A stretch of 64,000 bases of DNA from Elusimicrobium minutum (GCA_020723765.1 DYIF01000009.1:6583-70582); one strand, 5' to 3'; shown: positions 16,997-52,640, numbered from the stretch's first letter. Made by a program: numbers and translations. Notes: a model not told the origin generated them from the letters alone.

Positions 16997-17541
16997 ATAA
17001 ATTGCAAATAGATCAAAACGCGTTAACTAAAATAGTCGCCGTTGTCGTATTGGTCGGAGCCATTTTGTTTTCTTATCTTTATTTTTTCTGGTTTCCTATA
17101 TCCAAAAAAATAAACGATATGAGAGATAAGGTTTTGAAAATAGAAGCCGATATAAAAAAAGCCAAAGAAATAAGTTCCAAATACCCAGACCTTTCGAAAA
17201 AACTTAGCGAACTTGAAGCCGTAAAATCGGATATAGAAAAAAAACTTCCCAAAGAAAAAAATATGCCCGATTTGATGAAGACTATAAAAAAAATAGCGGA
17301 TAAGTATTCCGTAACCATTAATTCGATATCTCCTTCGACGGCCGTAAAAGAACAGTATTTTTTCAGAATAACTTATAATATGTCGGTAAAAGGGAGTTAT
17401 CACGATATAGCTTCCTTTTTTTCGGAGATATCTCTTCAAGAAAGAATTTTAAACGTGGAAAACGTATTAATAACCGCGGGAGACGTTTCCAATTCGAACT
17501 TTGTTTTGGTATCTTATCAGTATGAAGAGGTGAAAAAATAG
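16993..17541 (+). CDS. pilO: PilO-like pilus assembly protein
   Basis: A single TM helix, a coiled coil and a C-terminal ferredoxin-like segment. It sits between pilN and pilQ. Confidence 0.65.
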   Translation: MNKLQIDQNALTKIVAVVVLVGAILFSYLYFFWFPISKKINDMRDKVLKIEADIKKAKEISSKYPDLSKKLSELEAVKSDIEKKLPKEKNMPDLMKTIKKIADKYSVTINSISPSTAVKEQYFFRITYNMSVKGSYHDIASFFSEISLQERILNVENVLITAGDVSNSNFVLVSYQYEEVKK

Positions 17542-17545
17542 AGTT

Positions 17546-17989
17546 ATGATTATTTTTTTGATTTTAAATTTTTTCTTGCCGCTATCTTCTCAAAACCTAA
17601 AGCCAGATGTTTTCGTTTCCACTACCGCGTCTTCTTTAAACGAAATATATAAACCTTACGTTAAAAGAAATCCGATGATAGAGCCTCAAACTAAAGGATC
17701 CGTCACTTTGAAGTACGACATTAAATTTTCGACTTTTAATTTGAGATACGACGATCTTTCCGTAAAAGCGTTTTCATTGCAGGGAATAATAAAGTTTTTC
17801 GGTTCGAAAGAAGCCCTTTTGAAAAATACTATAAACGGAGAGATGTATATATTGAGGGACGGAAAGATTTACGACATAAAAAAAGTTCCCTTGAAAAATA
17901 TGACGGGAGAGATAAGAGGAAAATCAGTTTTAATAAAAAATATCGAGAAAAAAGAGGAAGCGGAACTTTTTTTAAACGAAAAGGAGTAA
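17546..17989 (+). CDS. Small secreted protein in the PilP position
   Basis: It has a signal-like N-terminus. The call rests on position only, with no lipobox Cys. Confidence 0.4.
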   Translation: MIIFLILNFFLPLSSQNLKPDVFVSTTASSLNEIYKPYVKRNPMIEPQTKGSVTLKYDIKFSTFNLRYDDLSVKAFSLQGIIKFFGSKEALLKNTINGEMYILRDGKIYDIKKVPLKNMTGEIRGKSVLIKNIEKKEEAELFLNEKE

Positions 17990-17992
17990 ATT

Positions 17993-19736: not shown

Positions 19737-21179
19737 ATGAATGTTAAAACCGCGGTTTTTATACCATTTATTTCACTTCTTTTTTACGGTTTTATAAACG
19801 TTAAAGTTTATTTTTTATTAAATTCTCTGGTTTTTATATATTTCTTTATTTATTTGATAAAACTAAGATCGGGCTCTTGTTTTTATCTTCCATACGGTTA
19901 TAAGTATTTATTTTCGGCGGTTTTTGTCTCGTTGTTTTCTTTCGCTTTAAGCCCTGTAAAAGGTTTAATTTCGATGGAATATATTAACTTTATTTCCGGG
20001 TTTATAATCTTTTTTATCGTTTTAAATATCGACGAGGAGATAGATTATAGATATTTTTATCCTTTTTTGGTCGTTATGGCGATTTCCGGGGCTTATAAAT
20101 CTTTCATGGGAAAAGAGGAGTTGATTTCAACGCTTAAAAACGCAAATACATTGGCTTTTGTTTCGATACTTATAATAGGAATGCTGGCCGAGAAGAAGAA
20201 ATATTATATGGCGATATTTTTCGCCGGGGTTCTTATTTCTACAAAATCGATAGCCGCAATGCTTTCGATTATGGTAGTAAGCTTTTATTACGGGTTTAAA
20301 AACAGGAAAAACATAGATTTTAAAAATAACCATATCGTTTTTTCCGCTATGATAATTTTATTTTTATTTTTACTGGTCAATATAGATTTCAAATCGGTTA
20401 CCGATAGAATTTCGTGGTGGAAGGCTTGTCTGGATATGTTTTTTGAAAGACCCATTTTCGGGTTTGGATACTCTTCTTTTACTCATATAATTTCGGCCTT
20501 TATGAACGGGGGACTTAAATCTTCATACGCTCACAATTACTTTTTAGAGTCCATGGCCGAAAACGGTTTGATATTTTCTTTTCTATGGTTTTTCTTTTTG
20601 TTTATTTCGGTTAGAAAATCTCAGGGTTTTTATAAGTATTCTTTAATGGCGGCTTTGATACACTCGTTTTTCGACTTCGGCATGGATACTTTGGCGGGAT
20701 GGTGGTTTTTTATGTTTTTTTTGGCTTTAAGCCATAAAAAAGAAAAACTTATGTTCAGGCTTAAAGAAGATTATCGAAAATACAGGATATATTTGATATC
20801 GAGTTCTTTAATTTTAATCGTTTCGTGGGGTTTGTATTCGTATAAATATTACCGTATAGATAAGGCGAATTACGAAATATTAAAGCTTTATTTGGAAAAA
20901 GATTTTAAAAAAGCTTCGGATAAGATTTACGAATTTGTATCGTTATATCCGGATAACATAGATTTGGCTTTGAGAAGAGTAGAGATCAATCGAAACTTTT
21001 ACGATATGACCGGAGATGAAAGGTATTTAAAAGAAACTGCAAAATCGTTGGAATATTTGCTTTTGATAAATCCTTATTACAGACCGGCCTACGACAATTT
21101 AGAGAGGATATACGAGTTTATTCGAGACGATAAATCCCTGGCCGAGATTAGAAACAGAAAAAAAACATATATAAAATAA
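19737..21179 (+). CDS. O-antigen ligase-like (Wzy_C) polytopic membrane protein with C-terminal TPR-like region
   Basis: About 10 hydrophobic helices, a YAHNYFLESMAENGL motif and a helical-repeat tail. Confidence 0.7.
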   Translation: MNVKTAVFIPFISLLFYGFINVKVYFLLNSLVFIYFFIYLIKLRSGSCFYLPYGYKYLFSAVFVSLFSFALSPVKGLISMEYINFISGFIIFFIVLNIDEEIDYRYFYPFLVVMAISGAYKSFMGKEELISTLKNANTLAFVSILIIGMLAEKKKYYMAIFFAGVLISTKSIAAMLSIMVVSFYYGFKNRKNIDFKNNHIVFSAMIILFLFLLVNIDFKSVTDRISWWKACLDMFFERPIFGFGYSSFTHIISAFMNGGLKSSYAHNYFLESMAENGLIFSFLWFFFLFISVRKSQGFYKYSLMAALIHSFFDFGMDTLAGWWFFMFFLALSHKKEKLMFRLKEDYRKYRIYLISSSLILIVSWGLYSYKYYRIDKANYEILKLYLEKDFKKASDKIYEFVSLYPDNIDLALRRVEINRNFYDMTGDERYLKETAKSLEYLLLINPYYRPAYDNLERIYEFIRDDKSLAEIRNRKKTYIK

Positions 21180-21180
21180 T

Positions 21181-22734
21181 GTGGAAAAACTCATAAGATA
21201 CAAAAAAGAACATATCGGTATTTTAATATTTTCCGCTTTTTTTATTTCGGGATTTTTTTTCGAGGGTTATAAGAAAAGCGTTTATTTTATTCCTTTGTTT
21301 GTTTTTTTGACGGTTTTTTTTTATTTAAAAAACATAAGAGTGGGATTAACATCGGGTTTTGGTTTCATTTTTTTAATGTTATTTTCCCTGTTTTTTGGCG
21401 ATTTTAAATCCGAGTCTTTTTTTTCGATTTCCGTATGGATTCTATGCGTATTTTCGTATTATTTTGTTTCGAATATGAAAGAAGAAGAAAAAAAATATTT
21501 TTTTAAATCTTTTAACGATATTCTGATTTACGCATCGACTTTTATTTCGATTCTCGTATTAATAAATTTTATAAAAGGCGGTAGATTTTACGTTATCGGC
21601 AATAATCCCAATTACGCGGCGATTTTAATTTCGATTTCAATTTTTGCGTGTTTTTTAAGGTTTCTGGATAATAAAAAGATAATTTTTTTGTTTTATACTG
21701 CCGTTTGTTTGGGTGCGATTACGGTTTTAAACTCGAGGAGCGGTTATTTGTCGTTGGTAATTTCTTTTTTTGTTTTATACGCCGATAAAAAAGGACTTAA
21801 AAAAGCTTTATTTGCGCTTTTGTTTCTTCTAATTATTTTTATTCTCTCGCCTTGGGAGATAATTTCGTATTTTCTAAAGGTGGACGATCCTAAAGCGTAT
21901 TACAGGCCTTATATATGGTTAAGTTCGTTAAAAGCCTTCGTTTCAAGCCCTATCTGGGGATTTGGCGGAGGAAGTTTCGAATATGTTTTTGAAAAGTTTA
22001 AATTTCCTTATTTCGACGGTTTTTGCTATTATAATCACTCTTCCGTTCACGCTCACAACGAATTTTTAAATATTGCGGTTGAAAACGGGATGGCGGTTTT
22101 ATTGGCATACTTATTAATTTTAAAAAAATGGTTTTTATCAAAAGAAAAAAACGAGATCTATTTTTCCATTATGATTATTACCGTTTTTTCTTTATTCGAC
22201 ATAGTTTTAAAATTGCCTTTTATTAGGATAATATATTTTTTGTTTTTGGGTTACTACGAGTCTAATTTTAAATACGAAGTGGGATTTAGAAAAATAATTT
22301 TATTAGTCGTTTTGTTTTTTGTGGCGTTTGTTTATGCTATCAAAGACAAAAACTTTAAAAAATATGAAAAAGGGTACGTGGAATTGTCGCAAAATCCGAA
22401 CGATTTTAGGAAATCGGCAGTTTCCGAATATTTGTTTTATCATTATCCTTTAAATCCGATTTTTGCGTTTGAAACGGCCAAGTTTTATGAAAGCGTAGAA
22501 GACTACGATAAAGCTTTGAATTATGCGGAAAAAGCCTTAAAGATTGAGCCCAATTTCAATAACGCTTTGATTATGACGGCGTATCTTAAATTTATTAAAG
22601 GCGAAGCAAAAGATTTTAAAAATTATATCGATAAAATTAAAATCGTCGAAAACGGCGAGCGGAATTTTTATTTTTCATATATTTCGTCTTTGAATTTAAA
22701 TCTTTATTATCGTCTTTTAAAAGAAGTTAAATAA
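21181..22734 (+). CDS. O-antigen ligase-like (Wzy_C) membrane protein with C-terminal TPR, paralog of the preceding gene
   Basis: VHAHNEFLNIAVENGM motif and a C-terminal TPR (AKFYESVEDYDKALNYAEKALKIEPN). It has a GTG start. Confidence 0.7.
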   Translation: MEKLIRYKKEHIGILIFSAFFISGFFFEGYKKSVYFIPLFVFLTVFFYLKNIRVGLTSGFGFIFLMLFSLFFGDFKSESFFSISVWILCVFSYYFVSNMKEEEKKYFFKSFNDILIYASTFISILVLINFIKGGRFYVIGNNPNYAAILISISIFACFLRFLDNKKIIFLFYTAVCLGAITVLNSRSGYLSLVISFFVLYADKKGLKKALFALLFLLIIFILSPWEIISYFLKVDDPKAYYRPYIWLSSLKAFVSSPIWGFGGGSFEYVFEKFKFPYFDGFCYYNHSSVHAHNEFLNIAVENGMAVLLAYLLILKKWFLSKEKNEIYFSIMIITVFSLFDIVLKLPFIRIIYFLFLGYYESNFKYEVGFRKIILLVVLFFVAFVYAIKDKNFKKYEKGYVELSQNPNDFRKSAVSEYLFYHYPLNPIFAFETAKFYESVEDYDKALNYAEKALKIEPNFNNALIMTAYLKFIKGEAKDFKNYIDKIKIVENGERNFYFSYISSLNLNLYYRLLKEVK

Positions 22735-37816: not shown

Positions 37817-39658
37817 ATGAAAAAAGCAAAAATAACCAGAGAAATAATAACTCAGAAAGCGATAGAGCTTTTCGCTCAAAACGGGATAGACAACGTTTCC
37901 ATGAACGAAATAGCCAAAGAACTCGGAGTAACAAAGCCAGTAATATATTACTATTTTAAAAATAAAGACGAAATGATAAAGTACGCTTTTTCGATGAGAG
38001 TAAAAGAAATGGACAGTATTTATAAAGATATTGAAAGCTCGGGAGATATTAAAGAGTTTATCAAAAGTTTAATAGATAAACACATCTCTTTTTTTTCCAA
38101 AAATTCTTCCAATATCAAGTGTTTTTTTAAGATAATAGATTCAGACAAGAGAAAATATATGATTAAAATGGCAAACGACCTGGTCGATAAAAATAGAAAA
38201 TATGTATACGATAAAATAGAAGAAATGAAAAAAATGGACGAGAAGATTTCAAAAACCGATACCATGGTTATTTCGGATTTTATTTTTTCTATGATTAGCT
38301 ATCTTATTATGGAGAAAAAGATGGATAGAAAAATAGACGTTAAAAGGATATATAAAGTGGTGGATATATTTTTGAAAGGTCTTTCGATTTTTTTATTTTT
38401 GTTTGTTTCGCCTTCCTTTGTAAACTCCCTCGAGGTTACGGCGGATAATATAGTCGATATGGCGTTTGAAAAAAACATATCTCTTCAAAACGCTTACACT
38501 CTGGAAAGCGTTTATAAAGAAAAAATAAACGAGTATTACGGTTCTGCCTATCCTCAAATATCGCTATCTGCTTCTTATACCAAGAACATAGAAAAACCAC
38601 TGGCTTTTTTCGGCGGAAGGAAAACGGAAGTGGGAATGGAAAACAGTTATTCTCTCGCTTTAAATTTAAATCAGGTTTTATGGGCCGGAGGCAAGGTCGA
38701 TACCGCGATTAAAATGGCCGAGATTTACGCGGATATTTCGAAAGAAAATACGAGATTATCTCAAAATTTCGTTAAAAGATCGGTGAAGCAGATTTTTTAT
38801 TCGGTTTTATACGCAAAGGAACTTGTTAAAATACAAAACGATATGCTGAATATATCTAAAGAGCATTTAAAAACGACCGAAGAAAAATTCAAACAGGGTC
38901 TGGCCAGCGATTTAAACGTATTGAGGCAGAAGGTCGAGGTTTCCAATAACGAACCCGCCCTTATAAAAGCGGATAATCTTTATAAAACAGGTTTGTTGAA
39001 TTTGAAAAACCTTTTGGGGCTCGAACTTGACGATTCGATAAATGTTTCTGGGAAGTTCGATTATAAATTTTCGGATTACGATTTTAACGAATTGTATAGA
39101 TCCGCTCTCGTAAACAGGCCGGATTATAAACTTGCGATTTTGAACAAAAAGATGAGCGAAAAGCAACTCAAATTGGAAAAAGCCGGGCATTGGCCGACTC
39201 TTTCGCTTTTTGCCTCAAGACAGTTTTCGGGTCAGAGCGAAACCTCACGTTTTCCGAGCGAAAACTCAAGAGGCTGGAGCATGGCCGCTGGAATTAGTTT
39301 TTCGATGCCCGTTTTTAACGGATTTTCTACGGTATCCAAAATAAAACAGGCCGAGTATAATTTAGAGATATCGGAGCGTAATATAGAAGACTTAAGAAGA
39401 AAAATAAAGATAGAGTTAATGCAGGCGCTTTTTAACATAGAAGAGTCGAAAAAAAGAATAGAAAGCCAGAGAGTCGGGGTGGAAAACGCCGCTAAAGTTT
39501 TAAAGTCGACCGAAGAAAGGTTTAATAACGGTCTTAGCAGCCAGCTGGAACTAAACGATGCGACTCTTGTTTATAACACGGCCCGGCTTTCTTACATATC
39601 CGCGGTTTACGATTATATAACCGCCGTCGTAAATCTTGATTATGTCGTCGGAATTTAA
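37817..39658 (+). CDS. In-frame TetR-family HTH domain (about aa 1-170) continuous with a TolC-like outer-membrane efflux protein (about aa 169-613)
   Basis: The N-terminus IITQKAIELFAQNGIDNVSMNEIAKELGVTKPVIYYYF is a TetR_N domain. From the internal ATG at 38321, which is preceded by GGAG, there is a signal-like MDRKIDVKRIYKVVDIFLKGLSIFLFLFVSPSFVNS and then the two OEP repeats. No stop codon separates the two modules. Confidence 0.8.
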   Translation: MKKAKITREIITQKAIELFAQNGIDNVSMNEIAKELGVTKPVIYYYFKNKDEMIKYAFSMRVKEMDSIYKDIESSGDIKEFIKSLIDKHISFFSKNSSNIKCFFKIIDSDKRKYMIKMANDLVDKNRKYVYDKIEEMKKMDEKISKTDTMVISDFIFSMISYLIMEKKMDRKIDVKRIYKVVDIFLKGLSIFLFLFVSPSFVNSLEVTADNIVDMAFEKNISLQNAYTLESVYKEKINEYYGSAYPQISLSASYTKNIEKPLAFFGGRKTEVGMENSYSLALNLNQVLWAGGKVDTAIKMAEIYADISKENTRLSQNFVKRSVKQIFYSVLYAKELVKIQNDMLNISKEHLKTTEEKFKQGLASDLNVLRQKVEVSNNEPALIKADNLYKTGLLNLKNLLGLELDDSINVSGKFDYKFSDYDFNELYRSALVNRPDYKLAILNKKMSEKQLKLEKAGHWPTLSLFASRQFSGQSETSRFPSENSRGWSMAAGISFSMPVFNGFSTVSKIKQAEYNLEISERNIEDLRRKIKIELMQALFNIEESKKRIESQRVGVENAAKVLKSTEERFNNGLSSQLELNDATLVYNTARLSYISAVYDYITAVVNLDYVVGI

Positions 39659-43669: not shown

Positions 43670-43697
43670 TTGACAAAATAGCGAAATCTGCTATAAT
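43670..43697 (+). promoter_or_regulatory. Sigma70-type promoter upstream of the riboswitch leader
   Basis: TTGACA (43670-43675), a 16-nt spacer and TATAAT (43692-43697). Confidence 0.65.
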
Positions 43698-43756
43698 ATA
43701 AATGTAACAGCTTTGTAAGGCAAGCGTAATATATTTGTAACGCAAATATAGTACGA

Positions 43757-43830
43757 TAATAGCAAACCCGTCGTAAGACGGGGGCGCAAAGCTAAAGACC
43801 CCGGAGTATACCGGGGGGTCAGGCTGCCGA
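43757..43830 (+). promoter_or_regulatory. c-di-GMP-I (GEMM-I)-like riboswitch aptamer
   Basis: GCAAACC-CGUC-GUAA-GACG-GGGGCGCAAAGCU parallels V. cholerae Vc2 GCAAACC-AUUC-GAAA-GAGU-GGGACGCAAAGCC, including the GNRA-capped hairpin. A second hairpin follows (GACCCCGG-AGUAUA-CCGGGGGGUC). The element sits directly 5' of the ATG at 43835. Confidence 0.65.
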
Positions 43831-43834
43831 AACT

Positions 43835-45427
43835 ATGAAAAGAGAATTTATAAATATAATTAGACCGTTATATATACAGAGCATAATTTCTGTATTTATA
43901 GCGGTTTTTTCGTTTTATACCGATTTGTTTTCTCAAGCCGGAGGTCAGCCCGGAGCGTTTTTGTCGTATGGAGTAGGAGCCAGAGCCTTAGGAATGGGGG
44001 GAGCTTTTTTTGCGATAAGCGACGACGCCACGGCAAGCTACTGGAATCCCGCCGCTTTAACGCTTGTTGAAAGGAAAGAATTTGCTTTTATGCAGGCTCA
44101 GATGTTTGAACAGACCACTTTAAATTTTATAGGCTACGTTCAGCCGACCGCTTCCAAAGGAACATTCGGTATTTTTATGAATCAAATGAATTCCGGCGGA
44201 TTTGAAAAAGTTTCAATAACCGTAGATCCTAATACAGATGAGATAGTCAAATTGGATAGTTTGGGAAGTTTTAGCGTAAGCGAAAGAGCCATAGGACTGA
44301 GCTGGGGAAGGGCAGTATCTTCGAAACTCGCTTTCGGAATAGGCATAAAAAATATTTCGAGAAGCATAGACGTATCCAAAGATTCTTTTAATACGATAGA
44401 TCTCGCCATGAACTATAACGTTTCAAAAACATACAGATTCGCTTTCGGAGTCCAAAACATTTTTTCAATGAAAAGCGGAGATACCGACGACGAGTTCCCT
44501 TTGGTTTTTAAAATAGGTCAGTCCTTTTCCCTTTTTAAAGGCAGTTTAATATTCGATTTGGACGTAAGTAAGACCCAGGGCGGCGGGCAGAATCTCAGAT
44601 TCGGCGGCGAGTACTGGCCGCTTTACTGGGCGGCTTTCAGATTCGGGATAATGGCCACGCCTCAAATTCAAGAGGCGAGTTTCGGGATAGGTCTTAAATA
44701 CAGGGGAATAAATTTAGATATCGCTCAGGGCATTCATTCTTTAGGAAGTACGACCAAATTTTCGGTCGGTATGAGGTTCGGTGATTCCACAAAGGCCAAA
44801 CACGACAGTGAAATAAGAAACATTGTAAGACAGGCTTTGCAATATTTTAAATCGGGATATTTTTCAAAAGCCGTGGAAAAATTAAAAGCGGCCATGGACG
44901 CGGACCCCGGAAATCAGGAAGTTAGGAATATGCTGGATAAACTTCAGGCCGCCATAACCTATGTCCCCAACGCCACCGGAAACGACGAGATACAAACTCT
45001 GGTAAGAAGAGGTATAGTGGCATATGTGGACGGGAAAGATTTAAGAACCGCGGTAAACGTTTTAAGGCACGCTTACAATAAAAATCCGAAAGACGATAAG
45101 TTATTGTCTCTTTTAAATATGATAGAAAGAGAGGCCGGAGTAAGCGAGCTTACCAGAAGACCGGAAGGACCTGAGATGTTTACTTTGATAGATCAAAAGA
45201 TTTACGACGCAAGACAGGCCATATACGAAGGCAAATACGACGTGGCGCTTAGAAGAGCTCAGGATATATTGGATCTTGAACCAAATAACGAGACCGCTCT
45301 CGAAATAATGGGTAGCGCATTCTTCTTAATGGATCAAAAATCGAAAGCGAAAGCCATTTGGGAAAAAGTCGTCGAAATAAATCCCAATAATACCACGGTT
45401 AAACAATTCTTAGACCAGATAAGATAA
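43835..45427 (+). CDS. PorV/PorQ/UPF0164-like outer-membrane beta-barrel fused to a C-terminal TPR region
   Basis: It has a signal-like N-terminus. YGVGARALGMGGAFFAISDDATASYWNPAAL is the hallmark N-terminal motif of the PorV/UPF0164 (FadL-like) family. Alternating beta-strand sequence runs to about aa 320, followed by TPR-like repeats. Confidence 0.65.
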   Translation: MKREFINIIRPLYIQSIISVFIAVFSFYTDLFSQAGGQPGAFLSYGVGARALGMGGAFFAISDDATASYWNPAALTLVERKEFAFMQAQMFEQTTLNFIGYVQPTASKGTFGIFMNQMNSGGFEKVSITVDPNTDEIVKLDSLGSFSVSERAIGLSWGRAVSSKLAFGIGIKNISRSIDVSKDSFNTIDLAMNYNVSKTYRFAFGVQNIFSMKSGDTDDEFPLVFKIGQSFSLFKGSLIFDLDVSKTQGGGQNLRFGGEYWPLYWAAFRFGIMATPQIQEASFGIGLKYRGINLDIAQGIHSLGSTTKFSVGMRFGDSTKAKHDSEIRNIVRQALQYFKSGYFSKAVEKLKAAMDADPGNQEVRNMLDKLQAAITYVPNATGNDEIQTLVRRGIVAYVDGKDLRTAVNVLRHAYNKNPKDDKLLSLLNMIEREAGVSELTRRPEGPEMFTLIDQKIYDARQAIYEGKYDVALRRAQDILDLEPNNETALEIMGSAFFLMDQKSKAKAIWEKVVEINPNNTTVKQFLDQIR

Positions 45428-45495
45428 TATTAAATTGATACGATTTTAAATATTTATGAAATCTTTTTGTAATTATTATAAGGTAAAATTATATT

Positions 45496-47421
45496 ATGAG
45501 GCTTAAAAAAGCTTTAAATTTTTTGTTTGCATTAGTATTAATATCTTCGTTTTTATATTCTCAAGAAAAATCTTCTTCCAAAGACATAAACGTAATACTT
45601 ATAGAAAAACAAAACGAGTTTAGAAAGGAAATAGAAGATAAAATAAAAAACAATATTTTAGATCCTGTTTTGGGAAAAGATAAGGCATTCGCCTTTGCGG
45701 ACATATTGTTCGACATAATTACCAGAAAACAAGATCAGACAAAAGAAGGCGTCGGAGTTTTGCAACAGTATAAAGAAAAAGGAGCGGCCCAGTCTCAGGC
45801 CGATACCGACTTTATTCTCCCTGGAATTCCAAAACCGAAATCAATACTTGGAGATAATAATAAAAGACCCGAGGCCGCGCATGGAACTCAAACCCAGCAA
45901 ACAAAAGCCATAGAAGAAACCAAATTTTCGGTAGAGCCAGAAATAACCAGATTCCAGGTGACCGTTTTACACGATGAAAGTTTGCCTCAGGATCTTTTGA
46001 TGATAGCAAGACAAAGAATAGACGACCTTTTGCTCCCTTATAAAATAAAAGGTAAAGACGCTCCGATAGTAATATTCAAACCGACAAAATTTAAAGCTAC
46101 AAACATATGGGACGACTTGAAAAAACCAATGGTTTATCTTCCTTTGTTATACGCTTTGCTTTTTCTGTTGCTTCTTTTTTATCTTTTCGGCCCTTTGTGG
46201 TCTTTTTTAAGAAAATATATAAAAGCTCTTATGGAAAAACCGGGTGCGGAGGTTAACATAGAGGATAAGCGAGAAGAGGGGGGAGGAAAAGGCGAAGGAG
46301 AAGGAGAGGAAGAGCAGGAAGGACATCAACAGATAGATATGAATTTTACTCAAAAAGAGGAAGAACCGCCCCCGCCGCCCGAGGAGGATGAGTCTATGAA
46401 AAAACTTGAGCCCTTTACTTATATAAACGAAGAAAATTTAAAAAGACTCGTTTATCTTTTCTTATTAAGGAAAGAAGACCCGTGGATAATAGCGATAGTT
46501 TTGAGTTATTTAAAACCCGAGCTTTCGAAGCAGGCTTTTGCGATGTTGCCGGTAGAGTTGCAATCGAAAGTGGCGTTGGAATCGCTAAAAGTCAAACAGG
46601 CTACCAGAGAGCAGATAGAAGCCATAGATAAGGATATAAAAGAAAATGTGGAATTCGTTATGGGGGGGGTTGAGCAGTTAATGAAGATATTGGAAGAGGC
46701 GGATGCTCAGACAAGAAAAAACGTTTTGGAATATTTGAAAACTCAAAAGCCGGATATATACGAAAAAATAAAAACGATAATGCTTACTTTCGAGGACCTG
46801 GTTTCTTTTTCGGATAAGGATATACAGACAATAATAAGAAACATATCCAACGAGGACCTCGCGAAAGCCTTAAAAGGAGCCGCTCCGGAAATAGTGGATA
46901 AATTTTTTAACAATATGTCCGCGGGCGCAAAGGCCACAATAAGAGAAATAATGGAATATATGGGAGAGCAGAACCAGCAGCAGATAGACGACGCCCAGAT
47001 GAAGGTTTTGGATACCGCTAAAACTCTGGAAGCGGAGGGAAAGATATCCAGTTATAGAAGAAGCGATGCGGGGGGAGTTTATATATTGGACTCATCGGAC
47101 GTTTCCCAAAGCTCTTTAAGAGAAAGCAAAATGGGAAAAGCGGCTCAGTCTCAAAATTTAAACGCGTCTGCCGAAGACTATTTCAATTCGGCGGTGGAGC
47201 TTTATAACTCGGGCAATTACGAAGAAGCTGCGTCTTATTTTAAATATATAACGGATTCCGATCCGAATAACGCATCGGCATGGCAGTACCTGGGTTCTTC
47301 TTATTACTCATTGGGCAATTATCAGGAGGCTGTATCCGCTTATGAAAATTACGTAAATATTACTGGAGACGAAGAGTTTAGGTCCTGGCTTGAGGATTTA
47401 AAAAGGCAATTAGGAATGTAA
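45496..47421 (+). CDS. Membrane-anchored FliG-like protein (TM, ~190 aa periplasmic domain, TM, acidic/Pro linker, FliG middle and C-terminal domains, TPR)
   Basis: The two hydrophobic segments are aa 8-22 and MVYLPLLYALLFLLLLFYLFGPLW. The FliG_M-like part is WIIAIVLSYLKPELSKQAFAMLPVELQSKVA. The FliG_C-like part is FEDLVSFSDKDIQTIIRNISNEDLAKALKGAAPEIVDKFFNNMSAGAKATIREIMEYMG. C-terminal TPRs include GNYEEAASYFKYITDSDPNNASAW. Confidence 0.7.
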   Translation: MRLKKALNFLFALVLISSFLYSQEKSSSKDINVILIEKQNEFRKEIEDKIKNNILDPVLGKDKAFAFADILFDIITRKQDQTKEGVGVLQQYKEKGAAQSQADTDFILPGIPKPKSILGDNNKRPEAAHGTQTQQTKAIEETKFSVEPEITRFQVTVLHDESLPQDLLMIARQRIDDLLLPYKIKGKDAPIVIFKPTKFKATNIWDDLKKPMVYLPLLYALLFLLLLFYLFGPLWSFLRKYIKALMEKPGAEVNIEDKREEGGGKGEGEGEEEQEGHQQIDMNFTQKEEEPPPPPEEDESMKKLEPFTYINEENLKRLVYLFLLRKEDPWIIAIVLSYLKPELSKQAFAMLPVELQSKVALESLKVKQATREQIEAIDKDIKENVEFVMGGVEQLMKILEEADAQTRKNVLEYLKTQKPDIYEKIKTIMLTFEDLVSFSDKDIQTIIRNISNEDLAKALKGAAPEIVDKFFNNMSAGAKATIREIMEYMGEQNQQQIDDAQMKVLDTAKTLEAEGKISSYRRSDAGGVYILDSSDVSQSSLRESKMGKAAQSQNLNASAEDYFNSAVELYNSGNYEEAASYFKYITDSDPNNASAWQYLGSSYYSLGNYQEAVSAYENYVNITGDEEFRSWLEDLKRQLGM

Positions 47422-47468
47422 CATTTTTTTAATTTTATTGAAATACGAGTATTTTAAAATATAAATAT

Positions 47469-50252
47469 ATGGCAGAGAATAAAAAAATACCTCCGATACC
47501 GCCGCTGGGCTTCCCTTCAAAGCCCGCTAATAAGCCGGCCGGATCCGTTCCTCAAATACCGAGTCCCATAACCCCCAGGGTTTCTCCTCCTTCTTTTCAA
47601 AAACCGCAGGCTCAGGAAGATAGAGGAAAAGAAGAAAGAGAAAAACTTGAAAAAAAGATAGCGGAACTTGAAAAAAGTTTAAGCGAAGAAAGAGAAAAAG
47701 TCCTGGCCTTAACCATAAAAAATCAACAGGAAGAGGTTTTGGCGGCCAAACTTGAAAATTCCATAAGAGACGTGGAAGAGAAAATAAAAAGAACTCAGCA
47801 GGAAAAAGCTTTAGAAGAAGAGAAAAATCAGTTGAAAGCGAAAATAAAGGAGCTTGAAACAAGATTGATTCAGGAGAGAGAAACATGGATGCAAACCCTT
47901 AAGTCTCAAATAAAAGACAAAGAGAAAGAGTCCAAAGACATAGAAGAACATTTCATATTGAGATTTCAAGAGTTTGAAAGAAAGTTCTTGGACGAAAAGG
48001 CTCAGTGGCAGAAGGCGATTTTTTCAAAAGACGAGGAGATTAAAAATATTAAGCTGCTGCTCGAACAAAAAACGAGAATCGAAGAAGATTATAAAAGGCT
48101 TTTGATGGAAAGAGAGGGGGATAAAAAAGAAATAGAAAGGCTTAAAGAAAGCTTGAATTCTTTAGAGAAGGAAAGGATTTCCTTGGATTCCTACATAAAA
48201 CTCATACCCGAAAAAGAAAAAGAAATAATAATGTTGAAAAACGAGATATCCAATTTAAAAATTCTATTTGAAAACGAAGTCGGCAAATTTAAAAATAAGG
48301 AAGAGGCTTTGAATAAAGAGATTTTGGAGCTGAAAAATAAACTTTCCCAGGTAAGCGAAAAAAATCTGATAGAAAGACAAAAAGAAATAGAGAAGATAAA
48401 ATTCGATTACGAAAAACTGCTTAAAGAAAAAGAGCTTTTAATATCCGATATAAATTTGGCAAAGACCGCGTTGGCTCAGGAAAACTTTAAATTAAAAAAT
48501 AGCGTTTCGGAAGCGGAAAAAGAGTTGTTTTTCCATAAAGAAAAAAATAAAAACTTGGAGCTCGAGAAGAAAGAGTTGGCTTCGGAGCTTGCGAAATTAA
48601 TAGAGGCGAATAAGGTCCTTATGAGCCAAAACGCGGAGCTTAAAGCCGAAAACGAAAATATGCATTCCAATTTGAAAAACGAGATAAATAAAATAGAAAT
48701 GAAATATTCGGATAAAATAAGAAACTTAGAATTTGAAAACTCCAATTTAACTCAGGATATTAAGAGAAAAGAAAACGAATATAACGCTCTTTTAAACAGA
48801 TATAAAAGCGAGACGGAATCTTTGTCGGAACAACTAAAAAAAATCGAGTCTTTTAGAAGGCAGGCGGAAAAAGATTACTCCGAAGCCTTAAACGAAAATA
48901 GAGAGCTTATCAAAGAATTGAATAAAATTAAATACGAAAACGAAAAAATCAATTCGGAGCTTACTATAGCCAAAGAAAAATTGGCGGATGTGGAAAGGGA
49001 GTTAAAACAAAAGGAAGATATAATAAAAAACGTTAAAAAAACTTATAACGACAGGTTTGAAAAAGTAAGCGAATCCATAAAGAAAATAGCGGCCACCAAG
49101 GTTTTTATAGAATCCGAAAACAAAAGGCTTCAAAGCGAGAAAATGGAGCTTTCCAAAAAATTGGCCGGTTTGATGCAGGATATTAAAAAGTTAGAGATGG
49201 AAAATGCGGCCGTAAGATCCGCTTACGAAGAGGAAATAGAGAACTATAAAAAAATAATAGAAAACATAAAAAATTCCAATAACGAAAATATAATTTCGGA
49301 GTATGAAAATAAGATAAACTCTCTGGTAGCCAGATATGAGACGGAGATAGGAAATTACAAAAAAGAAATCGAAAATATCAGGGCGAAATACGATGAAGAT
49401 ATTAAAAAGATATCGGCGGAGTACGAAGAAAAGATAAAACATATATCTTCAAACGAGATGAAAAATGTAGAGGCCGATTACGAGAAAAAAATAGCGGATA
49501 TAAAAGCGGAGTATGAGGCAAGGATTTCTCAAATCGTGGAATCGGGCAAAAAAGAGTATGAAGATATAAAATCGAAGTTTGACGAAAGTCAGAAAAAAAT
49601 AGACGAATTAAATGATATAATAAAAAATCGAGGGGAAGAGACGGGTAATATCGAAAAAATTAAATCGGAATATGAAGAAGAATTGAAAAAGAAGGATATG
49701 GAAATAAGCGATTTGAAATCCGAGATATCCAAAAAACAAGAAGAATTGGAGTCGTCTAAAAACAATTCCCCGGATTTTTCAACCGAGATGGAAAATAAGG
49801 CGAAAGAAATCGAATTTAGTTATGAGAATAAAATTAAAGAAATGGAGGCAAAATATATCTCTCAAATAGAAGCGCTTTCCAACGAATTGAAGGAAGAAAG
49901 AAGCAAGATATCTTTGCTGGAAGAAGAGATAAAAAAACTAAAAACGCAATCCGAAAATATCCCTCAAGATCCTTCCAAATTAAACGGGGAGCTTTTAAAA
50001 TATAAACAGTTTCTCGAAAAATACAAATCCGAATACGAAAAACTTAAAAACGCTTATTTTATGATCAAAGCCAAAGAGGAAGCCTCGGAAAAAAGAATAA
50101 ACGAATTGAATTCCAATCTCAACGCCTTAAACTCCGATTACAACGAACTTCTCGGAGAATTGCATAAACATGTTATGAATATCGAAGAAAAAGATAAAAA
50201 GATAGAAGAACTTAAACAACTTGTCGAAGAAATAAAGAAACAACAGAAATAA
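47469..50252 (+). CDS. 927-aa coiled-coil protein with Pro-rich N-terminus
   Basis: The first ~45 aa are Pro-rich (IPPIPPLGFPSKPANKPAGSVPQIPSPITPRVSPP). The remainder is K/E/L heptad-like sequence with no TM helix and no recognisable enzymatic motif. Confidence 0.7.
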   Translation: MAENKKIPPIPPLGFPSKPANKPAGSVPQIPSPITPRVSPPSFQKPQAQEDRGKEEREKLEKKIAELEKSLSEEREKVLALTIKNQQEEVLAAKLENSIRDVEEKIKRTQQEKALEEEKNQLKAKIKELETRLIQERETWMQTLKSQIKDKEKESKDIEEHFILRFQEFERKFLDEKAQWQKAIFSKDEEIKNIKLLLEQKTRIEEDYKRLLMEREGDKKEIERLKESLNSLEKERISLDSYIKLIPEKEKEIIMLKNEISNLKILFENEVGKFKNKEEALNKEILELKNKLSQVSEKNLIERQKEIEKIKFDYEKLLKEKELLISDINLAKTALAQENFKLKNSVSEAEKELFFHKEKNKNLELEKKELASELAKLIEANKVLMSQNAELKAENENMHSNLKNEINKIEMKYSDKIRNLEFENSNLTQDIKRKENEYNALLNRYKSETESLSEQLKKIESFRRQAEKDYSEALNENRELIKELNKIKYENEKINSELTIAKEKLADVERELKQKEDIIKNVKKTYNDRFEKVSESIKKIAATKVFIESENKRLQSEKMELSKKLAGLMQDIKKLEMENAAVRSAYEEEIENYKKIIENIKNSNNENIISEYENKINSLVARYETEIGNYKKEIENIRAKYDEDIKKISAEYEEKIKHISSNEMKNVEADYEKKIADIKAEYEARISQIVESGKKEYEDIKSKFDESQKKIDELNDIIKNRGEETGNIEKIKSEYEEELKKKDMEISDLKSEISKKQEELESSKNNSPDFSTEMENKAKEIEFSYENKIKEMEAKYISQIEALSNELKEERSKISLLEEEIKKLKTQSENIPQDPSKLNGELLKYKQFLEKYKSEYEKLKNAYFMIKAKEEASEKRINELNSNLNALNSDYNELLGELHKHVMNIEEKDKKIEELKQLVEEIKKQQK

Positions 50253-50277
50253 TCTTTTTTGATATAATTATACTTAG

Positions 50278-50502
50278 ATGATATTATTGCATAAACTTAA
50301 CAATTGCGAGATATTGATAAACGCCGAGCTTATAGAAAGCGTCGAGTCTTCTCCGGATACCGTAATAAATCTTGTTACCGGTAACAGGTTTATAGTAAGA
50401 GAATCTAAAGAAGATGTGGAAATGAAAGTGATAGAATATAAAAAAAAGGTTTATTCGGAAAGAAGAATTTTGAATCCCATAGAGGGATTTGAAAAAAAAT
50501 GA
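50278..50502 (+). CDS. flbD: FlbD (SwrD)-family small flagellar-associated protein
   Basis: 74 aa. ILLHKLNNCEILINAELIESVESSPDTVINLVTGNRFIVRES matches the FlbD family pattern, and the gene lies immediately 5' of motA-motB as in spirochete flagellar operons. Confidence 0.75.
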   Translation: MILLHKLNNCEILINAELIESVESSPDTVINLVTGNRFIVRESKEDVEMKVIEYKKKVYSERRILNPIEGFEKK

Positions 50503-50510
50503 GGTGAGAA

Positions 50511-51308
50511 ATGGATATAGCCACCTTTAGCGGTATAATAGTTTTCGCCGGCTTTGTGGTCGGAGCGGTTTATTTGCAAGAAGGAATCAACGGTTTTAAG
50601 CCGTTTATGAACGTCGAAGCGCTTTTGGTAGTTATGGGCGGTACATTTTGCGCTTTGCTTGTCAATTTCCCGCTATCCAAAGTAATCGGAATGGGTAAGG
50701 TTTTAAAAAAGGTAATGGCGTCTAAAGGAGAAGACACGTCTAAACTCGTTTCCACTTTCGTTTCTCTTTCTCAGAAAGCCAAAAAAGAAGGTTTTTTGGC
50801 TCTTGAAGCCGACGTTAAGAACATAGAAGACGATTTTATGAAAAGAGCCATACAGCTGGTGATAGACGGCGCGGACCACGATTTTATAAAAAACATGTTG
50901 GAGACCGAAATAGATTTCATACGCGAAAGGCATAAGGTAGGAAGAGAGATATTTAACGCTTTGGGAACGTACGCTCCGGCTTTCGGAATAATAGGTACCG
51001 TTTTAGGTATGATTCTTATGTTGTCTACGATAGACGATGTGGCTCAGGTGCCCAGAAGAATGGCTCTCGCTTTAGCCGCCGCTTTTTACGGCCTTGGTTC
51101 CGGTTACTGGCTTTTTCTGCCTATGGCCGGTAAATTAAAGCTAAGATCGGAGGAAGAGATTTTTATAAAAGAGATAATTATAAGAGGTGTTTTGTTGCTT
51201 CAAAGCGGCGCCACGCCTTCGGTTGTGGAAGCCAATTTAAAGGCATATCTTGAACCTTCCAAAAGACAATCCGTTAAGAAAGAAGAGGGGGAAGGAGAAA
51301 ATAGATAA
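50511..51308 (+). CDS. motA: Stator protein MotA (MotA/TolQ/ExbB channel family, flagellar type)
   Basis: It has four TM helices and a cytoplasmic loop with KKEGFLALEADV. The C-terminal channel helices are YAPAFGIIGTVLGMILML and ALAAAFYGLGSGYWLFLP. Confidence 0.85.
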   Translation: MDIATFSGIIVFAGFVVGAVYLQEGINGFKPFMNVEALLVVMGGTFCALLVNFPLSKVIGMGKVLKKVMASKGEDTSKLVSTFVSLSQKAKKEGFLALEADVKNIEDDFMKRAIQLVIDGADHDFIKNMLETEIDFIRERHKVGREIFNALGTYAPAFGIIGTVLGMILMLSTIDDVAQVPRRMALALAAAFYGLGSGYWLFLPMAGKLKLRSEEEIFIKEIIIRGVLLLQSGATPSVVEANLKAYLEPSKRQSVKKEEGEGENR

Positions 51309-51946
51309 TGGCGGTAAAACTTAAAAATATGATACCGGAGGACGACCCTCGTGTCGCTCCAATAGGCCATCCGGCGCCTCCCTGGATGGTTAATTACGCC
51401 GACCTTATGACCGAGATGGTTTGTTTTTTTATAATACTCTACGCTTTAAGCGCGGCTTTAAACAAAAATGTTCAAAATGCCGCTCAACAGATTAAAGAGA
51501 TGATGGAAAAGGGGGAGATGGCGGGTCAGGTCGAGATAAATAAAGAGGGGTTAAAGATAACTCTGGAAGAACAGGGGAACTTGCCTTTTTTTGAAAGCGG
51601 CAAGGCGACTTTAACCGAAGAGATGACCGGCAATATAGATAAAATAGTTCCGACTTTAAAAAAGCTTTCTCAAGATTATGAAATAATAGTCGAAGGCCAT
51701 ACGGATAACGTTCCGATATTTACCCAGCAGTTCGCATCCAATTGGGAACTTTCAACGGCAAGAGCCACTTCGGTTGTAAAATATTTGATAGATAAAGGGA
51801 TATCTCCAAAAAAAATATCCGCGATAGGTTACGGGGAGTTCAGGCCGGTCGTTCCAAACGACACTCCGCAAAACAGACAAAAAAATAGGAGAGTAGTTTT
51901 TTTTGTAAAAACTTTTGCAGGGAAGGTGAAGGATGAAAAAAAATAA
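51308..51946 (+). CDS. motB: Stator protein MotB (OmpA-like peptidoglycan-binding C-terminus)
   Basis: PPWMVNYADLMTEMVCFFIILYAL contains the conserved channel Asp. The OmpA-like domain carries VEGHTDNVP, NWELSTARATSV and NRRVVFFV. It has a TAATG overlap with motA. Confidence 0.88.
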   Translation: MAVKLKNMIPEDDPRVAPIGHPAPPWMVNYADLMTEMVCFFIILYALSAALNKNVQNAAQQIKEMMEKGEMAGQVEINKEGLKITLEEQGNLPFFESGKATLTEEMTGNIDKIVPTLKKLSQDYEIIVEGHTDNVPIFTQQFASNWELSTARATSVVKYLIDKGISPKKISAIGYGEFRPVVPNDTPQNRQKNRRVVFFVKTFAGKVKDEKK

Positions 51947-52640
51947 AATAATTTTTTTGCTTTTTTTCCTTAGCGGATGTTTTTCTTCTTCAAATATAAA
52001 AGTTGTGGATTTTACAGACGGCAGAGTTTCGGATCTGGCGTTAACTAAAAAGGTTATAGGCAAGAAAAATTTCCTATTTTTTACGACTACCAAATTGGGA
52101 ATATTCTTGGAAGGTTCCATAGCGGGGGTTGTTACCGATTATTACGGAAATCCAATAGAGGGGGTTACCGTAAAAGCGGTAAGCGATGTGGTAAAAAAGG
52201 AAGATGAAAATATAATAGAAGAAAACGCCAATTCCATGATAAGCTTAAACTTTACTCCGGGAGTAAGCGACACTATGGGAATTTATAAAATAAGGTTTTC
52301 CCTTCCCGTAATAGATAACGAGGTGGACGTAAGAGGAAGACTTGTCTATAACCCCGGGTGGGAGCAGCAGAAAAACAATTTAGGCAAGACTTACGAGCCA
52401 CAGATAAAGGAATCCCCGTTTAGACTTTATTACAATTTAGAAAACGGTTTTTTGGCTTTTGCGGAAGGAGTAAGGTCGGTGGTGGTGGCTCCCGTCGGAG
52501 AGGGAATAGGAAAGATGAAAACTCTTCCCGGTCAAAAGCCTCCTCAGACGAAAGAGGAAAAGCCTAAGACCGAAGAGAAAAAAGAGGAAAAACCGGCGAC
52601 CAATAACGAGGACGACATATTTAAAGCCTTCGGCTTTTAG
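51933..52640 (+). CDS. Lipoprotein with carboxypeptidase-regulatory-like beta-sandwich and K/E/P-rich tail
   Basis: It has the lipobox LSGC. GSIAGVVTDYYGNPIEGVTVKAV is CarboxypepD_reg-like, and the tail is low-complexity (QKPPQTKEEKPKTEEKKEEKP). It overlaps motB by 14 nt. Confidence 0.55.
   Translation: MKKNKIIFLLFFLSGCFSSSNIKVVDFTDGRVSDLALTKKVIGKKNFLFFTTTKLGIFLEGSIAGVVTDYYGNPIEGVTVKAVSDVVKKEDENIIEENANSMISLNFTPGVSDTMGIYKIRFSLPVIDNEVDVRGRLVYNPGWEQQKNNLGKTYEPQIKESPFRLYYNLENGFLAFAEGVRSVVVAPVGEGIGKMKTLPGQKPPQTKEEKPKTEEKKEEKPATNNEDDIFKAFGF

Follow-up and report, generated by a model that had tools for sequence, protein, structure and literature searches.

A 64,000-nucleotide stretch of DNA from Elusimicrobium minutum (GCA_020723765.1 DYIF01000009.1:6583-70582; hereafter, the window) encodes a protein in which what appears to be a FliF-type membrane module is joined covalently to the middle and C-terminal domains of FliG. 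We consider it reasonably probable that this fusion is the one-polypeptide rotor subunit of a flagellum-derived, non-flagellar rotary motor driven by MotAB. The open reading frame (ORF) lies at 45496..47421 on the plus strand, begins with ATG and encodes 641 aa, as described in a first-pass annotation made from the sequence alone. That annotation had interpreted the protein as a possible minimal fusion of FliF and FliG, and this interpretation is upheld here, with FliG profile matches, membrane topology and a fold resembling a ring-building motif (RBM) all in its favor. The operon context, the confinement to a phylum reported as non-flagellated and the riboswitch are additions of the present analysis. 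We divide the protein into the following segments.

45496..45567 (+), aa 1-24: signal peptide or FliF-like first transmembrane segment (TM1), from hydropathy and a positively charged n-region
45568..46125 (+), aa 25-210: putative periplasmic FliF-type RBM3 with a β-collar-like hairpin, from PF08345 in relatives, profile searches, AlphaFold2 (AF2) and Foldseek
46126..46209 (+), aa 211-238: transmembrane helix, equivalent to the second one of FliF (TM2), with a Kyte-Doolittle peak of 2.47
46210..46410 (+), aa 239-305: acidic, Gly/Glu/Pro-rich flexible linker, with 21 Asp and Glu against 10 Lys and Arg
46411..47055 (+), aa 306-520: FliG middle and C-terminal domains, from PF14841, PF01706, the structure 1lkv and Foldseek
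47161..47418 (+), aa 556-641: two TPRs and a capping helix (2.5 TPRs), predicted to be cytoplasmic, from Pfam, AF2 and Foldseek

The FliG module

Residues 306-520 form a genuine module of the FliG middle and C-terminal domains, with similarity far beyond chance. Pfam scores FliG_M (PF14841) at 40.9 bits (cutoff 25; E = 2.4e-10) over aa 323-386 and FliG_C (PF01706) at 106 bits (cutoff 23.3; E = 1.5e-30) over aa 413-517. The NCBIfam model for fliG, TIGR00207, aligns its positions 124-326 (of 338) to aa 321-517, scoring 126 bits against an equivalog cutoff of 226.7. A phmmer comparison with PDB sequences aligns aa 304-519 to the crystal structure of the middle and C-terminal domains of Thermotoga maritima FliG (1lkv, E = 1.3e-33), and in a Foldseek search with the model of the full-length protein, FliG structures rank on top, with FliF entries also among the matches. 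These results agree with the FliG_M and FliG_C alignment that had first been made by eye. The same annotation had proposed that the N-terminal domain of FliG is absent and that a membrane anchor stands in its place. Because TIGR00207 aligns only over model positions 124-326, we conclude that the N-terminal third of FliG is indeed missing; no FliG_N match is found in that place with Pfam or TIGR00207, and the sole Pfam match to FliG_N in the protein (17.5 bits) overlaps FliG_M. The joint between the C-terminal tail of FliF and FliG_N, normally non-covalent, is replaced here by the linker of ~65 aa, whose acidic and Pro-rich stretch, EGGGKGEGEGEEEQEG...EEPPPPPEEDES, already pointed out in the first-pass annotation, spans aa 261-300. 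AF2 gives a per-residue confidence (pLDDT) below 50 for aa 249-301. At the other end of the FliG module, several TPR models of Pfam match aa 556-626, in line with the two to three terminal repeats counted earlier; AF2 predicts helices over aa 559-639 with pLDDT of 84-92, and Foldseek matches this region to TPR designs with TM-scores of 0.6-0.9.

As judged from the alignments, the module keeps the features of FliG that serve ring stacking and face the stator, whereas the FliM site and most of the classical interface charges appear to be lost. The Gly-Gly hinge M389-G390-G391 does not vary among 37 aligned Elusimicrobiales homologues (A1), nor do the torque-helix residues N473, M474, S475, G477, E484 and Y488. 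The torque helix itself comprises aa 474-489 (DNA 46915-46962), and in more distant clades it follows the pattern NMS(A/Q/E)GA....(K/R)E.(M/I)(E/D)(Y/F). E. coli FliG numbering was transferred to the fusion through the 1lkv alignment and the register between the E. coli and T. maritima proteins, and on this footing we take K264 to correspond to K460, R281 to G477, D288 to E484, D289 to I485 and R297 to N493. The phmmer alignment to 1lkv, under this register, reproduces the replacement of R281/D288/D289 by G/E/I (G477, E484 and I485) that had been read with low certainty before, and the divergence of the stator interface suggested on that basis is confirmed for the charges of the torque helix. 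Among the five stator-interface charges, only the equivalent of D288 is kept acidic (E484); K460 is variable in the family, and G477, I485 and N493 are replacements. The R281 equivalent is Gly in all clades, and the D288 equivalent, a Glu, is invariant. On FliG_M, 'SEHPQT' of T. maritima aligns to 'KEDPWI' of the fusion, and the Arg of 'LKRIA' aligns to 'ALESL'. The equivalent of EHPQR, which we take to be the FliM-binding motif on the FliG_M surface, reads KE(D/E/S/P)P(W/D/E/K) across clades, with the Arg lost.

The periplasmic domain and membrane topology

Family profiles and predicted structures support the assignment of the periplasmic domain as a FliF RBM3 with a β-collar-like hairpin, that is, the S-ring module. 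A search with aa 1-253 over 1.84 billion representative proteins recovered only 69 representatives, most of them 600-700 aa long, and nine of ten that were scanned share the architecture of FliG_M, FliG_C and TPRs. PF08345 (YscJ_FliF_C, 'Flagellar M-ring protein C-terminal') scores above its gathering cutoff in four of ten full-length members scanned, in each case with the whole model covered and the match ending just before the transmembrane helix. In an alignment of 26 N-domains of the family (A2), 11 match PF08345, the best with E = 4.7e-9. When the A2 profile is compared with PDB, the best match is the FliF chain 9yh6_Oj (E = 3.8e-4, in two stretches flanking an insert), the second is SpoIIIAG (E = 1.3e-3), and Salmonella FliF is matched at residues 239-288, the start of RBM3 (E = 4.2e-3). 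An AF2 model of the N-domain, built with A2, has a mean pLDDT of 79.4 and consists of α33-59, β64-81, an insert of low confidence at 82-140, β141-160, α165-178, β191-197 and the transmembrane helix at 211-246. A Foldseek search of PDB with this model returns FliF MS-ring structures for all of the top 18 matches (E from 3e-6 to 7e-3), including entries described as 'RBM3/collar region', 'S ring' and '33-mer RBM3'. The first-pass annotation had noted that the segment preceding the second transmembrane helix recalls the ring-building region of FliF; the PF08345, profile and Foldseek matches bear this out, and the predicted fold is RBM-like, more specifically that of FliF RBM3 and β-collar. A family-wide motif, LPG(I/V)PxPK, lies in the insert at the collar tip, and G60, L108, P109 and P112 are the sole residues conserved across the whole family. 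RBM1 and RBM2, which house the export gate in FliF, have no Pfam match (PF01514) in the window fusion or in any family member scanned, and there is no room for them, since RBM3 and the collar account for the whole periplasmic region of ~185 aa.

The hydropathy profile of the fusion has exactly two hydrophobic segments, aa 3-21 and aa 211-238 (DNA 46126-46209), the second coinciding with a transmembrane helix previously located at DNA ~46129-46210. In this helix, the 37 Elusimicrobiales sequences show little or no variation over VYLPLLYALLFLLLLxFLFGPLW. The sequence of aa 1-24, on the other hand, is poorly conserved across the family, with dN roughly equal to dS and 15 nonsynonymous changes in 24 codons relative to the related locus L014 (related loci are numbered with the prefix L). 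Given the positive n-region, the unconserved sequence and the parity of dN and dS, the first hydrophobic segment resembles either a Sec signal peptide or a simple membrane anchor of the FliF TM1 type. Because there are just two hydrophobic segments and a signal-like positive n-region, we infer that aa 25-210 are periplasmic and aa 239-641 cytoplasmic, as in FliF. A cytoplasmic location is also the only one that would allow FliG_C to contact the cytoplasmic loop of MotA. This is the topology of the first-pass annotation, in which a hydrophobic N-terminus is followed by about 190 extracytoplasmic residues, and hydropathy together with the charge of the n-region would likewise place the FliG part inside.

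A stator encoded in the same operon

The fusion is the second of seven same-strand genes at 43835-52640, separated by gaps ranging from 68 bp down to short overlaps. The other six are as follows.

43835..45427 (+): PorV/PorQ-family outer-membrane β-barrel (aa ~42-315) with a C-terminal TPR domain (aa ~325-530), from NF033709 and TPR Pfam models
47469..50252 (+): predicted cytoplasmic coiled-coil protein of 927 aa, from composition and weak coiled-coil-type Pfam matches only
50278..50502 (+): FlbD, a SwrD-type small stator-associated protein (PF06289, E = 2.3e-22)
50511..51308 (+): MotA, flagellar-type stator A subunit (PF01618)
51308..51946 (+): MotB, with plug, transmembrane helix and OmpA-like peptidoglycan-binding domain (PF13677, PF00691)
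51933..52640 (+): predicted lipoprotein of 235 aa, the last gene of the operon, with an LSGC lipobox read from the sequence

MotA had been called adjacent to the fusion; it does belong to the operon, but the genes for the coiled-coil protein and FlbD lie between the two. The closest PDB chains to this MotA are MotA of C. sporogenes, MotA of B. subtilis and PomA of Vibrio (E from 1e-45 to 3e-51). In the cytoplasmic loop, AKKEGFLALEAD, K91/K92 and E99 align with R88/K89 and E96 of PomA. MotA is 67-90% identical across loci, the Lys-Lys pair being invariant and the Glu (the equivalent of E98, the classical partner of FliG R281) varying between Glu and Gln. This pattern fits a simplified but real FliG-MotA interface, since the Lys-Lys pair of MotA and Glu484 of the fusion are both invariant, whereas the MotA Glu varies and the R281 equivalent is always Gly. 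MotB keeps the channel Asp, with YADLMT conserved across loci. The stator genes do not reach the NCBIfam equivalog cutoffs (240 against 394), and we therefore regard this stator as a divergent member. FlbD is conserved in L006, L007, L010, L011 and L014.

Among the remaining products of the operon, the PorV-like protein scores 113.8 bits with NF033709 (PorV_fam) against a cutoff of 90. The 927-aa protein has 14 Pro in its first 60 aa followed by ~850 aa that are rich in Glu and Lys and free of Pro and Gly; it has no hydrophobic segment (maximum Kyte-Doolittle value 0.46) and no informative relatives in Pfam, NCBIfam or PDB. In its orthologues, the Pro-rich N-terminal 200-400 aa are the sole part conserved across clades. 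If the ~850 residues formed a single continuous coiled coil, the protein would span roughly 125 nm. The lipoprotein is 46-77% identical in L006, L007, L010 and L011 and has no match in Pfam, NCBIfam or PDB. The flanks of the operon are unrelated to it, with an RND efflux pump upstream and phosphoglucomutase and enolase downstream, and no other flagellar gene is found in the 64-kb window.

Distribution and conservation in the Elusimicrobiota

The closest 120 homologues of the fusion are full-length and 55-98% identical, and the named ones come from metagenome-assembled genomes of Elusimicrobiota/Elusimicrobiales. A profile of distant members additionally retrieves proteins of Endomicrobiia and other Elusimicrobiota, as well as one match labelled Omnitrophica. 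One distant member shares a 90%-identity cluster with a protein labelled Thermoprotei, which is probably mis-binned. Overall, the named homologues belong almost entirely to Elusimicrobiota of the classes Elusimicrobia and Endomicrobiia, and form hundreds of 90%-identity clusters; conservation of the fusion within the order is 55-77%. A scan of genome contigs with the fusion protein gave two true loci, L001 and L002, and the related contexts otherwise come from contigs encoding homologues. Three other matches of the scan (Methanosarcina, Wallbacteria) were confined to the TPRs and were set aside. The gene content of the related loci is as follows.

L011, L014: same gene order as the window, the upstream RND pump included
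L006, L007, L010: all seven operon genes
L012: PorV-like gene, fusion, MotA, MotB, then large proteins including the coiled-coil orthologue
L009: PorV-like gene, fusion, coiled-coil orthologue
L013: PorV-like gene, fusion, with the contig ending shortly after the fusion

In all of the related loci examined, which span 98% to 27% identity, the PorV-like gene directly precedes the fusion; these PorV-like orthologues are 30-80% identical. A coiled-coil orthologue is present in every related locus for which the downstream flank was recovered, and MotAB is adjacent or nearby in all of these except L009. Apart from MotAB, FlbD and the fusion, no flagellar gene occurs in any related 20-kb context examined.

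Both the PorV-like gene and the periplasmic domain of the fusion are under purifying selection, with dN/dS relative to L014 of 0.017 and about 0.07, respectively. For the whole fusion, dN/dS against the 98%-identical L014 is uninformative over the 3' two-thirds, where there are no differences. In the alignment of window 43835-47421 with L014 6108-9695, the PorV-like gene (dS 0.29) and the 5' third of the fusion have diverged, and from about codon 240 of the fusion to the end of the operon the two are nearly identical (dS <= 0.01). Because of this mosaic of divergence, the sequences suggest a recent recombination breakpoint inside the fusion gene.

The operon leader

The gap of 195 bp upstream of the operon contains a single promoter-like consensus site and a candidate riboswitch aptamer.

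43670..43697 (+): sigma-70-type promoter-like site (TTGACA, 16 nt with TG, TATAAT), matching the consensus at 12 of 12 positions
43752..43832 (+): putative aptamer of the c-di-GMP-I (GEMM-I) riboswitch class (Rfam RF03167)

The promoter-like site is conserved in L014, and its -10 region also in L011. The aptamer of the window matches RF03167 over the full model (1-80) with 54.5 bits and E = 1.2e-12, below the gathering score of 59. An aptamer of the same class is found upstream of the PorV-like gene in L006, L002, L012 and L009 (RF01051, 54.5-64.8 bits against a gathering score of 35) and in the leader of L010 (RF03167, 61 bits against 59); the leaders of L001 and L013 have matches below the gathering score. 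Both hairpins of the aptamer show compensatory substitutions across loci. The coordinates of these aptamers are given below.

L006 7881-7959; L010 7863-7941; L012 2016-2115
L002 8079-8157; L009 7729-7856; L001 8258-8339

Only 2 nt separate the window aptamer from the ATG of the PorV-like gene, and a Shine-Dalgarno-like GGGGGGUCAGG lies in the 3' half of the aptamer. Ligand-dependent occlusion of translation initiation is thus plausible, since the aptamer abuts the start codon and includes this element. At the position directly 5' of GCAAAC, the window and its closest relatives carry A in place of G, a change that shifts GEMM-I towards cGAMP, and the ligand specificity of the riboswitch may accordingly be altered in this clade.

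Giant proteins upstream and comparison with type IX secretion

In five of about ten contexts (L002, L006, L007/8, L009 and L013), the riboswitch and the PorV-like gene are directly preceded by the 3' end of a giant ORF.

L006 1-7728; L007 1-7891; L009 1-7241; L002 2-7801; L013 1-7973

The called sizes are 11,824 aa in L007, 12,671 aa in L006 and 17,141 aa in L009; the ORFs of L002 and L013 are truncated at the contig edge. These proteins are orthologous and have in common a near-invariant C-terminal domain (CTD) of ~100 aa, YPNPxD...VxIxIYDLLGY...KGGYI.RIK...IRKIGVI, which matches FlgD_ig and the type-A sorting domain of the type IX secretion system (T9SS) just below threshold (Por_Secre_tail 17-22 against 23). 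A hidden Markov model (HMM) built from the five CTDs finds no CTD-bearing ORF in the 64-kb window, where an RND efflux operon takes the place of the giant gene. In a database search, the same model retrieves mainly proteins or fragments of 100-180 aa, and not a diverse set of cargo. With none in the window and no diverse cargo in the database search, a role of the CTD as a general secretion signal in this organism is unsupported. L009 also encodes, at 7869-8348 between the riboswitch and the PorV-like gene, a 159-aa protein that is essentially a CTD-like domain (HMM E = 6e-10), and CTD homologues of 100-180 aa are numerous in Elusimicrobiota metagenomes, some of them on very long contigs. A family of stand-alone CTD proteins therefore seems to exist.

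The locus resembles the T9SS/gliding machinery of Bacteroidota (GldLM, the PorV shuttle and SprB) in that an ion-driven 5:2 motor is co-encoded with a PorV-family outer-membrane barrel, and in that many of the related loci also encode a giant protein ending in a CTD-like β-sandwich. However, the motor here is made of MotAB and a FliF/FliG rotor where T9SS has GldLM, and the window lacks the giant CTD gene. The PorV-like protein is far below the equivalog cutoff for T9SS_OM_PorV (27 against 250), and the same is true for the PorQ equivalog. No core T9SS genes are found within the 64-kb window, and neither GldK/N nor SprA near the operon. We reject a classification of the system as T9SS because the equivalog models fail.

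Other features of the window

A type IV pilus assembly cluster with PilM, PilO and the PilQ secretin lies at 15306-19729 (+), and also includes a 180-aa ORF (probably PilN) and a 147-aa ORF (probably PilP). It is followed at 19737-22734 by two genes resembling Wzy_C/O-antigen ligases. An ORF of 613 aa at 37817-39658 (+), upstream of the membrane fusion protein and RND pump genes, combines an N-terminal TetR_N DNA-binding domain with two OEP/TolC-like repeats. The same fused call is made in L011 and L014, and it represents either an odd domain combination or a missed gene boundary.

Relation to known systems

The flagellar status of the phylum has been described in two ways. One study finds no flagellar machinery in any genome of Elusimicrobiota (PMC11257099). 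Another reports a complete flagellar gene set in only a few genomes, and notes that most free-living Elusimicrobiota are without the structural genes yet keep motAB, flbD and fliG, in a role called 'enigmatic' (Uzun et al., bioRxiv 10.1101/2022.07.08.499144). In the literature on FliG and MotA of Elusimicrobia, on non-flagellar FliG-like and MotAB proteins and on FliF-FliG fusions, we found no description of a fusion of FliF RBM3 with FliG_MC, nor of the PorV-like partner, the giant CTD neighbor or the riboswitch of its locus. A phylogeny of MotAB (PMC12505986) mentions neither Elusimicrobia nor FlbD, and a preprint on giant genes mentions neither FliG, MotA nor PorV.

The closest parallel is the flagellar rotor of MS-ring and C-ring with its MotA5B2 stator. 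The fusion shares with it the succession of RBM3/β-collar and transmembrane helix, followed by FliG_M, the Gly-Gly hinge and the torque helix of FliG_C, and flagellar-type MotA, MotB and FlbD are co-encoded, with the charges of the MotA loop and the channel Asp of MotB kept. Unlike in the flagellar rotor, however, FliF and FliG are one polypeptide, RBM1/RBM2 and the joint of the FliF tail with FliG_N are missing, the EHPQR site for FliM is degenerate, R281, D289 and R297 are replaced, and TPRs have been added at the C-terminus. There are also no genes for FliM/N, export gate, rod, hook or filament nearby, in a phylum reported as non-flagellated. A covalent link between FliF and FliG is also present in engineered or laboratory fusions, for example a chain of 945 aa (PDB 8z4d/8z4g, 'Flagellar M-ring protein, Flagellar motor switch protein FliG'). 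The FliG part of this chain can be aligned with the window protein, and the profile of the family N-domains matches the RBM3 of the chain weakly (E = 0.2). Such chains are complete FliF plus FliG in a normal flagellum, whereas the window protein is natural, 641 aa long and without RBM1/2 or FliG_N. SpoIIIAG, which forms the large non-flagellar ring of the sporulation feeding channel (PDB 5wc3), is similar in having an RBM fold with a β-insertion, but has neither a FliG module nor a stator partner, and the top Foldseek ranks for the N-domain of the fusion are occupied by FliF only.

To our knowledge, all FliG-MotA torque interfaces investigated to date are those of flagella. The other 5:2 ion motors that we know of (Exb, Tol, Gld, Agl, Zor) use unrelated partners, and none of ExbBD-TonB, TolQR-TolA, AglRQS and ZorAB is known to us to employ a FliG-type torque interface or a FliF-type ring. 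What the present system has in common with these is the use of stator-like units outside the flagellum (for the MotAB family at large, PMC12505986); it differs from them in that its MotA groups with MotA/PomA by sequence.

A rotary model and its alternatives

If the fusion is a rotor subunit, its periplasmic RBM3 module would oligomerize into an inner-membrane ring, as RBM3 of FliF does, and thereby keep the FliG_MC domains arrayed in a second ring beneath the membrane. Peptidoglycan-bound MotA5B2 units would push the torque helix of FliG_C and so turn the ring, with the retained rotor-stator contact formed by Lys91/Lys92 of MotA and Glu484 of the fusion. Such a ring could not be the base of a secretion system or flagellum, because RBM1/RBM2, EHPQR and, in the loci examined, the export, rod, hook and filament genes are missing. 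Output could be passed upward, from the β-collar tip motif to the PorV-like barrel and its TPRs and, in many relatives, to the giant CTD surface protein, or downward, from the C-terminal TPR domain of the fusion to the coiled-coil protein of ~125 nm, and expression would be set by a cyclic dinucleotide. Most likely, the output goes to one of these two conserved partner sets, in the envelope or in the cytoplasm, which is the weakest link of the model. By analogy with gliding and T9SS, collar tip, PorV-like TPRs and giant CTD protein are a candidate route into the envelope, and control by a cyclic dinucleotide would fit surface motility, adhesin movement or an envelope function. We put forward more tentatively, as possible but on balance doubtful, the full version of this model: an envelope-spanning rotary organelle of Elusimicrobiota, with a FliF(RBM3)-FliG(MC)-TPR rotor driven by MotAB/FlbD, coupled through its collar tip to the PorV-like protein and often to a giant CTD protein, and switched by the riboswitch.

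Several observations weigh against the fusion being a rotor subunit. Ring formation, rotation and the contact of FliG with MotA are inferred from homology. Of the five classical charges of the torque helix, no more than one or two are retained. The window fusion's own N-domain has no Pfam match at E <= 0.01, PF08345 included, and so its link to FliF rests on family members, profile and predicted fold; the Foldseek TM-scores of this domain to FliF are modest (0.3-0.55, where 0.55 is the maximum normalized to the target) with high rmsd, and the AF2 model of the full-length fusion is poor (predicted TM-score, pTM, 0.27). The distant locus L009 has no MotAB within 10 kb. Finally, the absence of a flagellar gene set from this organism is taken from the literature, and a few genomes of the phylum do have complete sets (10.1101/2022.07.08.499144).

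These points leave space for other explanations. In the one that we take most seriously, although we find it unlikely, there would be no continuously rotating ring: MotAB would work in the manner of ExbBD or TolQR, which are 5:2 motors acting as transducers, and the fusion in the manner of TonB or TolA, energizing the PorV-like outer-membrane protein, possibly for the release, insertion or secretion of the giant CTD protein. The invariable presence of a PorV-like barrel with periplasmic TPRs next to the fusion would be well explained in this way, as would the giant proteins with T9SS/FlgD_ig-like CTDs directly upstream in half or so of the contexts (5 of about 10) and the loss of most torque-helix charges. 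On the other hand, the periplasmic domain is assigned to FliF RBM3/collar, whose known role is the building of rings of ~33-34 subunits; the organization of FliG for ring stacking, with ARM_M, Gly-Gly hinge and ARM_C, is kept; and MotA belongs to the flagellar and not to the Exb/Tol clade. A static array of FliG_C domains that recruits, parks or gates MotAB under c-di-GMP without mechanical work, for example to modulate the proton motive force or envelope stress, would agree with the putative cyclic-dinucleotide control and with TPR and coiled-coil partners, which are typical of scaffolds. We regard such a docking or regulatory platform as quite improbable, as it has no precedent and leaves the periplasmic ring module, the collar-tip motif and the obligatory outer-membrane partner unexplained.

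Two further explanations can be rejected. Spirochaetes have a second FliG, and the fusion might by that model be a divergent paralogue of FliG that serves in a real flagellum, with the remaining flagellar genes located elsewhere in the genome. The labelling of many members by JGI as 'flagellar motor switch protein FliG', the flagellar type of FlbD, MotA and MotB and the few Elusimicrobiota genomes with complete flagellar sets (10.1101/2022.07.08.499144) could be cited for it, but the probability that we assign to it is very low: FliG_N and the FliM-binding EHPQR motif are absent, a FliF-like ring module and transmembrane anchor of its own would compete with FliF, the phylum has been described without flagellar machinery (PMC11257099), and there is no flagellar gene in the window or in the related 20-kb contexts. 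It is hardly credible, too, that the fusion is a relic, pieces of a lost flagellum that became joined by chance and now drift without a function. While the loss of the FliM site and of most torque-helix charges can be read as decay, this is contradicted by the conservation data, namely an architecture kept in hundreds of 90%-identity clusters from two classes, 55-77% conservation within the order with invariant residues in the transmembrane and torque helices, a MotA that is 67-90% identical across loci, low dN/dS, and a conserved putative riboswitch and promoter-like site.

Implications

If the proposed motor does turn, then a flagellar torque module has been redeployed for another task, and the 'enigmatic' motAB, flbD and fliG genes of non-flagellated Elusimicrobiota gain a concrete and testable model. 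It would also offer structural and biophysical work a naturally minimal rotor, without FliM/N or an export gate and with FliF and FliG in a fixed 1:1 ratio. The riboswitch, the obligatory PorV-like partner and the recurrent giant CTD protein point to surface motility, adhesion or an envelope function. Should the more tentative idea of an envelope-spanning organelle prove true, it would be the first case of the FliG-MotA torque interface serving outside a flagellum, and a natural minimal MS/C-ring for the study of torque generation and flagellar evolution. It could also account for gliding-like movement, or for the transport of adhesins, in a phylum considered non-motile, and could alter our view of these widespread groundwater and gut bacteria.

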